Shown: in pieces, positions 46,901 through 52,717 of the stretch
How positions within the stretch are numbered: the first letter of the stretch is position 1
Layout: each line of letters begins with the position of its first letter
Assembly (NCBI GenBank): GCA_965153455.1
Contig: OZ234493.1
Span: forward strand, 24,666,213-24,730,212
Direction of reading: 5' to 3'
DNA length: 64,000 nt
From: Sphagnum compactum
Taxonomy: Eukaryota
The notes under the pieces: model-generated
Databases searched by the model: none
What the model saw: only the letters and a program-made list of their open reading frames with translations
Told to the model about the DNA's origin: nothing
Made by a program: the position numbers and the translations under genes

Positions 46901-47636
46901 TTTTCAAAGACACTCGTAATAGAAGGGTTGCAAGAAATGATAGCATGTCATTTTGAAAAGATTGCTCTCAATGCATAACAAAAGTTGAATTAGGTGAGTT
47001 ATTATTTGTTACCTTTAAAATTTTGTCACAATTATGCAAGCTTTCTACTAAAGGAAATGAAATGAATGATCAAGATAAACTAAGATGTCATCATTGTTGA
47101 AATGATCTATTTGCAAGATCACATGGTCATTGCTAGTTTTGTAAGACCAAAGCCAGACTCACCTTTCAATGTTTGGTTTGTTAACCTTTAAACCAATGAG
47201 ATTGAAAATTGTAAGGTGTTGTTTGATTGCATACTTGGAAGAGGGACCTTTAAGTTCAAAATTGAAAAGCTACATGTTATTAAAAATAATTAACATTGAT
47301 CCCATTCAAGTCAAGTGAAGATGTGTATCTTTTAAGGTTGGGTTGTACGTTTCAATTGAGATTATTCAAAGGGGATGAAGATCCCAACTTGGATTACCTT
47401 GTGAAAACTCTTTATTGAGTTTTGAAATGTGGGATGGGAGATAACATATAGGCTTCGTTCACACTCAAGGTTGACAAACAATCTATCCATACATGAGTTA
47501 AAGGTGAAGAAGGGTGGGCCAAAGACATCTTTGGATGTGTTGAATGTTATGTTTTCTTGTTGAATCCGAATGGTTTTTCTAACACAAACATATCCCAAAC
47601 CCAAATAATGTTATAACTTGTGTTTGCACTCATAGG

Positions 47637-47807
47637 TTTTGATTGTGCAACGCTACTATATTTGTGGCTTGGCCATTGACTTGCACTCCTGGGTTTTGAT
47701 TGTTCAATGCCACTATGCTTGTGCCTTGACCATTGACTTGTACTCCTGGGTTGTGATTGTTCAATTCCACTATGGTTGTGGCTTGGCCATTAACTTACAC
47801 TCCTGGG
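47637..47807. repeat. 57-bp tandem repeat x3
   Basis: Units 47637-47693, 47694-47750 and 47751-47807 each end in ACTCCTGGG, with no spacers between them. Confidence 0.9.
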
Positions 47808-48360
47808 ACTCCATTGGCTTGGCCTTTGGTCCACATCGAGCTTGAAATGCAACAAACCTTTGGGGAACACAATCACATCACCCCCATTCACAAGTGCAAC
47901 AAATAGAGTTGGTTGTTGGTGCTTACAAACCCCACCAAGTTATCCAGAGTGACATACTGAGTACCGGTGGAGATGCTCTTAAAGCAATTTAGATGAATTT
48001 CAAGCTTTTTACCATGGTACCTGTGTGGTTGCTGGTTCACCCAGAAGATCTTGTTCCCTATGCTGTTCGAAGCCAACACTAAACCTAAAAACAGAACGAT
48101 ACGCAGAAAACGAAGAAAAGATGTCCCGAGGACAGAGGCCACAACACGTAACATTCAACAGTCCACTGCCGTCCGTGAGTACAGATTACAGACAAAAATG
48201 ATGCGTTTCACTCTTTGACGTCTTCGTGAATGAAGATTACAGAGCATAATGATCATCCTTATTGTCATTCTGCTAAAATTAGGGTAAGAGTTATTTGATA
48301 TAATGGCCTAAAAATTGGACTGTCTAGATCTAGCGCCGTCCAGATCCAGCAATGGTGCGG

Positions 48361-48420
48361 AAACCCTAAAATCTTGTATAAATAAACTATGTCTTCATGG
48401 AGGTATTCTCTCTTCCGCTC
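48361..48420 (+). promoter_or_regulatory. Telo-box + TATA + pyrimidine-rich initiator of the snoRNA host gene
   Basis: AAACCCTAA at 48361-48369, TATAAATA at about 48377-48384, and TTCTCTCTTCCGCTCC about 30 nt downstream. Confidence 0.65.
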
Positions 48421-48804
48421 CGTGCAAGGTAGGCTCCTGATGGCGCGTCGGTCAGCAGAGGAAGACAGCGACGGTCTGTGTTCTGCGCTTGCGCAAAGTG
48501 GCAGAGGTTTTTGTGGAGAGATCTTCTGTACGGTCTTGATTTGTTACCGATGTTTGTTTTTCAGTTGCTATCTCTAATGTTTCGAATGACTTTGGCCTTA
48601 GTTTCTTCGGATGCTTCTGAAGATGAAACCCTTCTGTAGGGTTTCATCTTCACCTACATGTGGAGGTTTCTTGTATGCGGTAGTTTTCCGGAAAGCTTTC
48701 TATGGAGCCTACTTGTAGGTGTTAGTTTGTGGGAAGCTTGCTATGTAGTAGTCTTTGCTTGTCTTGTCTGGGAGGTTTTGTTTTGTTTTGTCCCTGTTTC
48801 TTGT

Positions 48805-48897
48805 GAGGGCGATGATTATAACCATATTTACATTACCATCTTTCGGGACGGAGAAACCTTTGTTGGTTGTGCCGATTTCTCGAATTATGATGCCCTT
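48805..48897 (+). ncRNA. Box C/D snoRNA, snR39B/SNORD2-like guide for a 25S rRNA Gm
   Basis: Terminal stem GAGGGCG/TGCCCTT, C box ATGATTA (48812), D' box CGGA and D box ATGA (48887). The 13-nt guide ACCATCTTTCGGG (48835-48847) is complementary to the conserved LSU rRNA sequence CCCGAAAGAUGGU. The boxes are non-consensus variants. Confidence 0.7.
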
Positions 48898-48981
48898 CCA
48901 GTGCTTCCCTATTAGTGGTAAATTTCTAGCTGCTCTACAGGAGTTATGGGCAAGCATCTGTGAACGGTTGAAGTCTGTTTC

Positions 48982-49129
48982 TCCTGAACTAAAAGCAGAG
49001 GCCAATGAAACCAGAATGAGCTGGATCTCTCGTCAGTTACAGGAAGATAAAAAAGCATCAACTTTAGGTGGTGAGCCATTGTCGGGTTTATGGCCAATGG
49101 CAATAGGTTCAATCCATGGTGCTACAACC
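48982..49129 (+). ncRNA. Box H/ACA snoRNA, SNORA21/ACA21 (snR10)-like double guide for 25S rRNA pseudouridines
   Basis: Two hairpins, H box AGATAA (49045-49050) and ACA (49124-49126), with both pockets exactly 14 nt from their box. Pocket 1 (AAAAGC/CGTC) fits GACG-U-U-GCUUUU and pocket 2 (GGTG/CAATCCA) fits UGGAUUG-U-U-CACC in conserved LSU rRNA. Confidence 0.85.
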
Positions 49130-51148
49130 TCAAGCGTACACTGTTCTTATGTTTGGTTTCATCACTGTCTGTAGCATGCTAAGCTCTTCAGTAGCTTTCA
49201 TCAAGGGTCTTCTTCTTGTCTTCTGTGCAGGGGGCTTCTCTTGAGCTTCAACCCTGGTGAAGCACTCCATCTGAGTTCGCTTCTGATTTCGTAGGTATGG
49301 GTCTGTGGCTCTGCCTTTTATGGCAAGTTCAAACTAGCAACGTTTAAAGTGGGAAATGTTCTATTTGAAGTTCCCACATAAATGAGCTCCCTGGTGAATG
49401 GTCCTCAAAGTGTGGCATCAAATGAACTCTGCGTTGTTCAATAGTTTCTGCCTGATGTAGACCAACAAATAGCCTAGTACACCAAGAACTCATCAGCAGT
49501 TTGTGTTACGTAACCCATCTGTTGTTATTCATCCAGCACTTCTGTGTGCATTTGAACCATGCAGGCAGAGTTTGTTGCAGACAGATCCATACCTAGGTGC
49601 AATGTGCTTATCAAGCTGTTTTGAAGCTTATGCTTCCCAATGCACGCTCAATCTAATTTCGAAACTCCATCTCTAGTAGGAGATGCCCAACGTTTAGTTT
49701 CACAATATGGTCATTAACTGTTCAGGTAATGGCATCATCAGTAAAAGTACAATGGCCTCGCAATCAATGCAAGGTACATCGAAAATTCTCCGCCTTGTTG
49801 AGGCCCACAGCTATTGTAAAATAGAGCTCAGATTCTTTAAGCCCCACAAGCTTCTTCAACATGGTAGTTGGCAAGAACAACCAACAGGTGGACAATACTC
49901 TGGAGCTGCAGCAGTTCTCAACTTCCAACCAAAGCTATTACTCTTCTTATTAGAGAAATGGCTATCTACTCTTGATCAAAGTGGCAAATTTGCCCACTGG
50001 CTGTTTCCCTCCCTTTCGGGCAATTTCAAATCAGCGACGGTTAAAATAATAATGCTCCATGAAGTTCCTAAAAACTGAACTCAACTAATACCTGGTGAAA
50101 CAAACAGTCCTGGAAATGTGGGACCAGATGAAAACTGCATCATTCTCTAGTCTCTCCCTTACAGGTAGGAGCCAAAAAATCCTCTGCGTGATGGATCAGA
50201 TTTTACATAAACTTCTGAATGGACAAACTTAATAATCAAAGGGATTGGTGTTGTCTACTGCAGCCATGAAGCGCCAAGGCAATTGCAGAGCTCTGTAAGA
50301 TAAGATAAGCTTTTGGCTAGAAGAGCAGACATCTTAATATTCATTAGAACTGCTTGTAGCACTGGTGAACAACAGCTATCCAACACATTCAATTCACTCA
50401 GCAGCAACATGTGCAAAACAGGAAATCCAACCAAAATGAATGGGTATTGTGAAAATTGGGAATTGGTGTACAGTCTCCAGACTAATGAAAATTGGAAATT
50501 GCCTCAATTTTCTCCCCCCTCTCTTCTGTTCCTCTGGCTTGTTGCTGGACCTGTAACTATATCTTGCTCCATCAGCCAGAACAGGGCAGCAAATACTTGG
50601 GTACACTGGTGGAAATCATGGAGGACAAAGACAATAGTGGCTTTGTGAGGGAATATGCATTTTTCTGTGGCAAATCGTTTGTCACCCACATAAATATGTG
50701 ATGTTTCCAAGCTCCAAAATATTTCCAATCTGGGAAAGGGTATAGCAGCTTTGCAAGGTAACCAATACAGGTTTAGCCAGCATTTTTACCAGTTCATGAA
50801 CTTTGGTTAGGGTTAGGGTTAGGGTTCATTTACCTTGTATTTAGTATTTACCCTATTGGCAATAGGTACCCATGGGTACATGCCTATTGCAAAGTTATGA
50901 GATCCCAATTGGGAATACAAAATTGAGAGATGGTGGAACCATGCTTCATGGCTAGCTACGCTACCCTGATTGCAAAATGAATTAGTTCAAAAAAACAAAC
51001 TTGGAGAACACGGCTACATCTCCAGTTGGCACTCACAAGTTGATTCCCAATTCAAACCCAATCCCATGACCTACTTACTACACAGAATGTCATGAGGGTG
51101 AATGAAGTCTCTCTTCCCTCTTGGTAGAGGCAACAAAAGGGAAAGGGA

Positions 51149-51468
51149 CCAGAGTGAACCAGCACCCCCACCAGCGCACCGAATAAGGATGGATGGGTTT
51201 TCTGTCGAATTCCAGTTCCCTAACTAACCATGGTGATTAGCTAGTTGCTTGTTTATACTACCTACCTACTAACAACTCAGGTAGTAATAAAAAGAGCCTT
51301 TGCCTATGTATAAACCATCTACGTAGTATAGGTAGCACCTACTTCTTACCAAATCGGTTACCAAGGTGAATCCCAGATATTAAACTCAGGTGAGGTTCAT
51401 TCACAGCTGAGTCATAAGGGGCATCTAGAGGATGGTGTGCTGGTGGGGTGGGTGCTGGTTCACTCTGG
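51149..51468. mobile_element. MITE-like element, 320 bp, with 19-bp perfect terminal inverted repeats
   Basis: CCAGAGTGAACCAGCACCC (51149-51167) and GGGTGCTGGTTCACTCTGG (51450-51468), plus a subterminal CCAGCGCACC/GGTGTGCTGG pair. No clear TSD; a decayed sister copy is at about 15316. Confidence 0.8.
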
Positions 51469-52717
51469 CCAACAACAAAATGGCCACTTACAGCCTTCCT
51501 TCCTTCCTTCCTTCAAACCAAAATTATATAAATAAATATAATTAATTAATTAATTAATTATTAAAAATTAAAAAATTGTATCTCAAAATCTTACAAAGAT
51601 GTGAAGTCTCTTCTTTCTTTCTCTGGGCAGAGGCAACAAAAGGGGACTTTATTAAAGTCCTGGGTGACATGAGGAAATGATAAGTTAGGAACCATAAGTT
51701 GTCAGTAAGTCAAAATGAAGACGTGAGTGTGGGTGGGGCACTGGGGTTGTGTGGGTCCACATTGCACAATATGTTTGTGAGCCTGGTTGTGTCAGTGACC
51801 AACACTACTAGTGCCCAACTGGCATGACTTGTAAAGGCAAGTTTTCAATGAAAGTGGGCACCGGTTCGCCTGTACTATTTGGCCCCCACCCTCCTCCACC
51901 TCACATCTACTTGTTGTGTGTGGGGTCCTCCTCAGTTTGCTTCAGATGACGGCCGAATTGGTGGTGGTGCTGGTGGTGGTCAAGATGGATGCATGGGCCC
52001 CCGTTGGAACCTTTCTGGACAAAAAGCTTGGCTCCGCTAGGCTGTCCATGATGAGTCGACTCTGGACACAACAACAACAACAACCTACTGCCTAAATAAT
52101 CTTGTTGTGAAGAGAAGAGGAGGAGGAGGAGGAGGAGCAGCAGCAGCAGCAGGAGAAAGGAAAAATTAAATTGAATTAAATTATGAAATTTCAGTGGGTG
52201 GATAAATAAAGGCCCCAAAAATGAGAAAGGAGGAAAATTTTGAGAAATAATCCAAAAACAAAGCAACAAAACACATCAAGTGATGGGTACGTGTGGTGTT
52301 AATGTCAGTTGCTTTGATGGTGGGTGTAGGTAAGCAAAACCCTGATGTCCGAGGAGAGGAAGACAGCACATTTGGCAGGACGGTTTGTGTGTCAGCATTG
52401 AGGGGAGGGGGAGGGAGGGAGGGGATTGTTTTCAGATCGGAAACCCAATTGCCAGTTGCCAGTTGTTTAGAAGTTACTAGTACCTACACTTCTCATGTGT
52501 GTATTTGATAAGAGGAAAAATTTGGGGTTGTGTCTGGAGGCCACGTAACGAAAACTTGGTGGAGGGTTTGGTTCTTAGTGGTTCCATTTCCTGGGGTTGG
52601 CGCACCTCTTTTGGGCTGTTTGCTTGCCTGGACTTTGGTCCTTGCCCCTTGTTTCTGTGTCTCTCCCTTTCTTGGGTGCTTTCTTTTTTATAAAGTTTGG
52701 CAGGGTTTCATCAAAGC

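Follow-up and report, generated by a model that had tools for sequence, protein, structure and literature searches.

A two-snoRNA unit behind a telo-box promoter

The stretch analysed here, referred to as the window, comprises 64,000 nucleotides of the moss Sphagnum compactum (assembly GCA_965153455.1, contig OZ234493.1, positions 24,666,213 to 24,730,212 of the forward strand), and positions below are counted from its first letter. Its plus strand carries, from a telo box at 48361 to about 50790, a non-coding unit of roughly 2.4 kb in which a box C/D small nucleolar RNA (snoRNA; 48807-48895) is followed, after a spacer of 83 nt (48896-48978), by a box H/ACA snoRNA (48979-49129). A preliminary description of the locus had proposed a dedicated non-coding snoRNA carrier combining a plant-type promoter with a mixed pair of snoRNAs, and this proposal is borne out by conserved telo-box and TATA elements and by open reading frames (ORFs) that are broken in orthologues. 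Its further claim of a multi-intron architecture resembling the animal GAS5 and SNHG genes is not supported by the analysis: no junctions were found, two long contigs are unspliced, the third proposed donor reads GA in orthologues, and proposed introns 2 and 3 are empty. The locus is real, non-coding and ordinary in kind, holding new moss members of known snoRNA classes in a known plant arrangement.

Constraint within the unit was read from loci retrieved in a metagenome scan with the guide motif of the C/D snoRNA, which returned 120 loci (designated by the letter L). Seven of these resemble the window by BLAST (L028, L030, L057, L056, L071, L013 and L097), and the remainder are mostly accidental 17-mer matches or homologues of other eukaryotic origin. 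L028 and L030 are orthologous to the window over 47940-50859 at ~90% identity (BLAST), and L057 is 99.7% the same as L030; the three lineages compared are thus the window, L028 and L030. The lowest rates of variable columns per nucleotide were those of the promoter (0.035), the C/D snoRNA (0.034; 3 variable columns in 89 nt) and the H/ACA snoRNA (0.020; 3 in 151 nt), which are therefore the constrained parts. Outside them the rate ranged from 0.10 to 0.44, with 0.29 in the start zone, 0.145 in the spacer between the snoRNAs (12 variable columns in 83 nt), 0.28 in 49130-49230, 0.44, 0.33 and 0.17 in proposed exons 2, 3 and 4, and 0.15 and 0.10 in proposed introns 2 and 3. The prediction that introns would be more conserved than exons in orthologues was thereby confirmed, in that the snoRNA-bearing stretch varies less than the proposed exons, but the same pattern holds equally for the spacers of an unspliced precursor. 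The segment 49774-50164 is somewhat better conserved than the other non-snoRNA parts.

The telo box, TATA box and pyrimidine-rich start named in the preliminary description are all present. The telo box, AAACCCTA at 48361-48368, is the sole plus-strand copy of that sequence in the 64-kb window (direct reading and motif search) and is without change across the three lineages. The TATA box, TATAAATA at 48377-48384, was identified in the same way and is likewise kept in all three; both elements lie 440 nt upstream of the C/D-H/ACA pair. The pyrimidine tract CTCTCTTCCG (48406-48422), read directly as the presumed transcription start zone, is found ~25-35 nt past the TATA box and is unchanged in the lineages though its flanks vary; plant promoters often contain pyrimidine patches, as part of the rice literature describes (PMC3022908).

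A second Sphagnum-type C/D copy lies at 1100-2100 of L056 (equivalent to L071), with 85% identity to the window over the snoRNA only and an Rfam score of 29.8 bits; two telo boxes, together with GGACCGTCCAGATG in duplicate (at about 1533 and 1596), lie ~330 nt upstream of it. No H/ACA partner was detected at the L056 locus, where the C/D copy is divergently transcribed from what reads like an LSm/Sm-type gene. The motif CCGTCCAGAT (plus strand, 48336-48345), which is the same in the window, L028 and L030, stands beside the telo box in each of the two moss promoters, that of the window and that of L056; with two loci only, the shared 10-mer is a weak signal that could be chance (p about 0.2 by our estimate). 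The site II and TEF boxes of angiosperms occur in neither of these two promoters. Another retrieved locus, L013, holds a plant cluster on a metagenome contig (1952-2679, minus strand) with snoU19 (142.8 bits), snoR138 (79.2 bits) and SNORD96 (58 bits) on one strand, and mixed clusters that include the SNORD96 C/D family therefore exist elsewhere.

The box C/D snoRNA

A relaxed Rfam search of a 3-kb region matched 48807-48895 end to end to SNORD96 (RF00055), the family of plant snoR39BY, with 37.6 bits and an E-value of 6.2e-5. The same segment was the only plus-strand candidate in our own C/D scan of 48300-50620; four minus-strand candidates in that interval have 4-bp stems and background conservation and were judged to be chance. 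The RNA consists of a C box (AUGAUUA, 48812-48818), a D' box (CGGA, 48849-48852), a D box (AUGA, 48887-48890) and a terminal stem of seven pairs (GAGGGCG/UGCCCUU). It shares with SNORD96 and snoR39BY the layout, the 5' guide before D', the terminal stem and the length of ~85-90 nt, and differs from them in its box variants, in a changed 3' guide and in a score below the gathering threshold of the family.

Beside this terminal stem, the C and D boxes keep the GA/GA pairs and the U.U pair and are thus able to form a kink-turn (K-turn). In the published K-turn register, two G:A pairs come after a bulge of 3 nt (NRU; PMC1865073), and D-box residues are numbered G = 2n and A = 1n (PMC5579392); from this register we infer that C-box position 6 faces D-box position 1. 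These two positions are U-A in 6/6 Sphagnum-type sequences (AUGAUUA with AUGA), versus G-C (xUGAUGA with CUGA) in seven clear homologues from other organisms. The six fall into two sets of near-identical sequences, the window with L028, L030 and L057, and L056 with L071, and represent three orthologous lineages plus one second locus. A G-C versus C-G swap additionally distinguishes the terminal stem of the window from that of L056. Compensatory changes in both the box pair and the terminal stem therefore argue for a working snoRNA.

The 5' guide, ACCAUCUUUCGGGA (48835-48848), lies directly before D' and is identical to the Rfam consensus over 14-15 nt. It is identical also in L013, L023, L043, L054, L074, L090, L103 and L119, where the match arises by construction because the loci were fetched with the motif; the Rfam consensus, by contrast, provides an independent match. 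Arabidopsis snoR39BY (At2gCDbox68.1/.2) is assigned 25S Gm814 for its 5' guide and 5.8S Gm79, the equivalent of human Gm75, for its 3' guide, according to the portion of PMC8583080 concerned. By analogy with the Arabidopsis assignment, the moss 5' guide would direct methylation at the 25S site. The 3' guide reads UUUCUCGAAUU in the window, as against UUCUGCAAUU in the consensus and in L013, so that the 5.8S guide of the family is not found here. Because the two sequences differ at two central positions, the 5.8S guide function was probably lost in the moss lineage and the 25S guide kept, as far as the guide sequences indicate.

The box H/ACA snoRNA

The second RNA was recognized by our own scan, by folding and by conservation. 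It is the only plus-strand match to a hairpin-H-hairpin-ACA pattern in 2.3 kb, compared with 0-1 matches in each of ten shuffles; a minus-strand candidate at 50442-50604 has background conservation and was judged to be chance. The H box consensus is ANANNA. In the window, a 5' hairpin (-15.1 kcal/mol), the H box AGAUAA (49045-49050), a 3' hairpin (-24.6 kcal/mol) and an ACA box (49124-49126) follow one another in the expected layout, the 3' end being predicted. The three substitutions between lineages fall in a loop, at a hairpin base and in an A-U pair that becomes G-U.

Weak Rfam matches at 48979-49129 were obtained with snoR74 (RF01231; 21.9 bits, E-value 3.2) and SNORA21 (RF00412; 18 bits against a gathering score of 80, E-value 1.8). 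Both families have the same length class and the same hairpin-hinge-hairpin-tail layout as the moss RNA, and the cmscan alignments share short stretches at the 5' end and before the ACA box; the scores, however, are far under gathering, and membership in either family is not established. PMC5122169 reports snoR74 among four H/ACA families whose distribution extends throughout land plants.

One X1 contig (record 3; 48979-49141, 163 nt) lies over the H/ACA snoRNA with 0 differences and a depth of 63. Its use for mapping the RNA ends was dropped, as its start is fixed by a 30-nt overlap with neighbouring contigs. Contigs of X4 run into sequencing adapter after 49118 and 49122, 7-11 nt short of the expected H/ACA 3' end and upstream of the ACA box.

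Coding capacity of the unit

Both snoRNAs are overlain by a plus-strand ORF of 120 amino acids from its first ATG (48812-49174), or 140 amino acids from stop to stop (48752-49174), as given by the ORF list. The preliminary description had placed it at 48755-49174 with 139 amino acids, which is essentially right, and had anticipated that it would be miscalled as a protein, as has in fact happened: one of its relatives is annotated in Sphagnum magellanicum as hypothetical protein CY35_08G090900 (94% identity). This public gene call and an open frame of 120-140 amino acids are what a real small protein has in its favour. No Pfam family was found, however, for this ORF or for any of the four ORFs of the unit, and a search of 5.8 billion proteins yielded just five relatives, all at least 80% identical, 79-162 amino acids long and differing in their starts and ends. 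The invariant residues are those within the H/ACA snoRNA and the variable ones lie in the spacer, such that substitutions gather in these 83 nt and not at third codon positions; a 20-nt deletion is located at the end of the ORF in L028; and the two conserved RNA genes fully account for the frame. That the ORF encodes a small protein is thus hardly credible, and we treat it as spurious. Two other ORFs, 49707-50078 and 50409-50648, are interrupted in orthologues by indels of 8, 2, 5 and 10 nt, and the hypothetical spliced product contains no ORF longer than 79 amino acids. Because no ORF survives the indels of the orthologues, the unit of roughly 2.4 kb is non-coding.

Transcription, leader structure and neighbouring genes

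Four RNA runs were mapped to 47400-52400, and the runs matching the stretch are moss and plant metatranscriptomes. One polyadenylated (polyA) run only is from the same species, with 58 reads over 5 kb (depth about 1x). First mates lie on the minus strand over the unit and on the plus strand over a minus-strand cupin gene, and the RNA of the unit is therefore of the plus strand. The polyA depth is maximal over the C/D snoRNA (bin value 9.0). X4 reaches depths of 114 over 48542-49118 and 22 over 49093-50532, with 0 in flanking bins, and the signal is therefore RNA and not DNA background. Downstream of the H/ACA snoRNA, contigs support a non-coding tail of the same plus-strand transcript (49130-50790; X1 pieces extend to 50786), within which lie proposed exons 2 (49231-49294), 3 (49726-49773) and 4 (from 50165). 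X1 contig depth rises to 34/14 at 49424-49610 and to 13 at 49904-50245, versus about 3 around them. No snoRNA-like feature was found at these two rises, and the folds of 49375-49625 (z +0.37) and 49775-50110 (z -0.62) are no better than those of shuffles.

Twelve polyA reads and an X7 contig have extra sequence in a T/G-rich tract at 48775-48792, and the reads carry G>A at 48803 (9/9). A splice as the reason for the loose ends of the twelve reads before 48775 was rejected, given that the X7 contig has the same extra sequence after 48792; its position in the T/G-rich tract therefore fits an indel or a second copy. The observation suggests that a second, near-identical copy is expressed or that an allele carries an insertion, and the extra sequence does not occur in L028, L030, L056, L057, L071, L013 or L097.

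The leader between the promoter and the C/D snoRNA is highly structured. The segment 48560-48760 folds at -61 kcal/mol (z -3.44), and 0 of 200 shuffles did as well. Folding places in it a perfect 15-bp hairpin containing TAGGGTTT (plus strand, 48618-48652), the core stem of which is conserved save for a single change in L030, with a 19-nt indel directly 3' of it in both L028 and L030. A second hairpin (plus strand, 48693-48740) appears in the minimum free energy fold and in the centroid fold alike and has few variable columns. The 48618-48652 hairpin may be a candidate endonuclease entry site for removal of the cap, a kind of site that processing independent of splicing needs. Self-BLAST of 48200-50900 against the window revealed the leader palindrome but no other repeats.

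Upstream, a fragment of a germin-like Cupin_1 gene (47793-47939, minus strand, E-value 6.5e-5) stands back-to-back with the snoRNA promoter. Precisely between positions 47938 and 47940 of the window, L028, L030 and L057 contain ~835 additional nt; the loci may differ here by an intron or an insertion, or the window may have undergone a deletion. On the far side, a gene on the minus strand (51074-51470), whose reads are spliced or have loose ends, is convergent to the snoRNA unit, and a 41-nt piece of it (51430-51470) has very high depth in metatranscriptomes.

Precursor processing and alternative interpretations

We interpret the locus as an ordinary plant-type, independently transcribed and largely unspliced precursor of two snoRNAs, to which we assign a probability of roughly 0.6. 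The conserved telo-box/TATA promoter, back-to-back with the cupin gene, would drive an RNA polymerase II unit from which a precursor of roughly 2.3-2.4 kb is made largely unspliced. Small nucleolar ribonucleoprotein proteins would assemble on the C/D and H/ACA RNAs; endonucleolytic cuts in the structured leader and the spacers, followed by exonuclease trimming, would free the RNAs without splicing; and the leader, spacer and long tail would be thrown away. Polycistronic snoRNA clusters of plants usually release their RNAs in this splicing-free manner. Plant snoRNA precursors are mostly polycistronic, as stated in part of PMC5122169, and are described in part of PMC3022908 as telo-box associated, capped and polyadenylated. 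The moss locus resembles the clusters of Arabidopsis and rice in having at least two snoRNAs on one strand, a short spacer (83 nt), a telo box with a TATA box upstream and, as in L013, a mixture of H/ACA RNAs with a C/D RNA of the SNORD96 family; a capped, polyadenylated RNA polymerase II precursor processed without splicing, known from those clusters (PMC3022908 and PMC5122169, in the parts concerned), is proposed for the moss unit as well. It differs from them in lacking a site II or TEF box by the telo box and in having two snoRNAs only, followed by a non-coding tail of roughly 1.6 kb. In the literature searched, we found no description of bryophyte snoRNA gene organization and nothing specific on plant snoRNA host genes.

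Several observations weigh against this interpretation. At gathering thresholds, Rfam gives 0 matches in the whole window; the SNORD96 score of 37.6 bits does not reach the family cut-off of 43, and the snoR74 score of 21.9 bits is sub-threshold against 44, such that the Rfam support expected by the preliminary description came from the relaxed SNORD96 match, with both snoRNAs below gathering. The C, D' and D boxes are non-canonical when set against RUGAUGA, CUGA and CUGA; the 3' guide departs from the consensus at its two central positions, and L030 and L056 differ further; by motif search, the telo box of the window has neither a site II nor a TEF box near it; and, for a plant snoRNA cluster, a non-coding tail of 1.6 kb is long. 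The sub-threshold scores, the unusual boxes and the diverged 3' guide would also suit a scenario in which both RNAs are decaying copies, or pseudo-snoRNAs, with the functional SNORD96-type gene residing at an L056-type locus, and the twelve polyA reads over the C/D snoRNA could stem from a further, near-identical copy whose upstream sequence differs. Decay is nevertheless an improbable explanation: the box variant is fixed in both Sphagnum-type loci with the base pair kept, the snoRNAs have 3/89 and 3/151 variable columns versus 0.15-0.3 per nt around them, the L056 copy scores lower still (29.8 bits), and the H/ACA snoRNA is covered by an X1 contig with 0 differences at a depth of 63.

In a spliced, polyadenylated, non-coding host gene, the C/D and H/ACA RNAs would be freed from intron 1 (48429-49230), with one or two further introns downstream. 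The proposed sites do have GT at 48429, 49295 and 49774 and AG ending at 49230, 49725 and 50164, and five of the six dinucleotides are conserved in the three lineages, as are the pyrimidine-rich acceptors at 49230 and 50164; CAAG/GTA also occurs shortly after the telo boxes in L056. These canonical sites are, however, not above chance: at thresholds that the proposed sites reach, 48300-50900 contains 12 donor-like sites on the plus strand versus 8 on the minus strand, and 28 versus 19 acceptor-like sites. Donor 3 is GA in L028 and L030 (2/2 orthologous lineages), the context of donor 1 varies (GTAGGC, GTACAA, GTTAGC), and proposed exon 2 contains an 18-nt indel. None of the three junctions that the preliminary description had offered for verification (48428/49231, 49294/49726 and 49773/50165) was found in the four runs, of which the polyA run has only 58 reads, a depth too low to rule against splicing. 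Its reads are absent from 49404-49904 and resume at 50072-50572 (depth 1.1-4.6), a gap such as removal of an intron at roughly 49295-50164 would leave; the stretch across donor 2 (about 49237-49400), on the other hand, is covered by at least one polyA read pair. Two long contigs, X4 record 13 (49093-50532, 1438 nt) and X7 record 23 (48960-50473, 1510 nt), are colinear with the genome and unspliced across five of the six sites, namely the intron 1 acceptor (49230) and the donors and acceptors of introns 2 and 3. We caution that such contigs demonstrate presence and not absence, that they are 93-94% identical to the window and therefore derive from related species, and that X7 is taken as RNA by guess only. 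Proposed exons 2 (0.44) and 3 (0.33) vary more than the snoRNA-bearing stretch, as a host gene would lead one to expect, and intronic clusters behind a telo-box promoter are common in rice (31/109 loci; PMC3022908). Introns 2 and 3, however, hold no snoRNA recognizable by Rfam or by our own scans (at E-values up to 10, Rfam gave over 49200-50300 a single noise match, sn2417, 13.5 bits, on the minus strand), and a conserved, very stable leader hairpin would be superfluous for intronic release. We therefore consider a spliced host gene unlikely, although more probable than decay or a small protein; the tandem C/D and H/ACA RNAs of the preliminary description are both present, but the intron said to contain them is unsupported (0/3 junctions).

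Comparison with the animal host genes GAS5 and UHG/SNHG leads to a similar balance. The moss unit resembles them as a non-coding RNA polymerase II transcript with snoRNAs as its sole conserved content, a pyrimidine-rich start region, poorly conserved sequence outside the snoRNAs and no conserved ORF. It differs in that no junctions were found for it (four runs, low polyA depth), in that one of its donors is not conserved, and in that the animal genes typically have one snoRNA per intron, whereas here both would share one proposed intron and the others would be empty; the animal genes moreover have initiation of the terminal oligopyrimidine type, whereas in the moss unit the conserved pyrimidine tract marks a presumed start zone.

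Implications for snoRNA genes in mosses

The largely unspliced precursor that we favour offers a moss example of a mixed C/D and H/ACA cluster behind a telo-box promoter. A more specific version of the spliced arrangement, a bryophyte non-coding host gene with a telo-box promoter from which at least one intron is removed (about 49295-50164, possibly also 48429-49230 with the snoRNA pair) and of which the unspliced contigs are precursors, is in our view slightly less likely than the general case and thus doubtful; if true, it would place a UHG/GAS5-like gene organization at the base of land plants.

For annotation, the consequence is a correction: the Sphagnum hypothetical protein model corresponds to two snoRNA genes, which escape the default thresholds of Rfam. 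The change from G to U at C box position 6 together with that from C to A at D box position 1 is a natural compensatory change, and the co-varying boxes illustrate selection on the second stem of the box C/D K-turn. Retention of the 25S guide alongside the probable loss of the 5.8S guide predicts that mosses and flowering plants differ in rRNA methylation.

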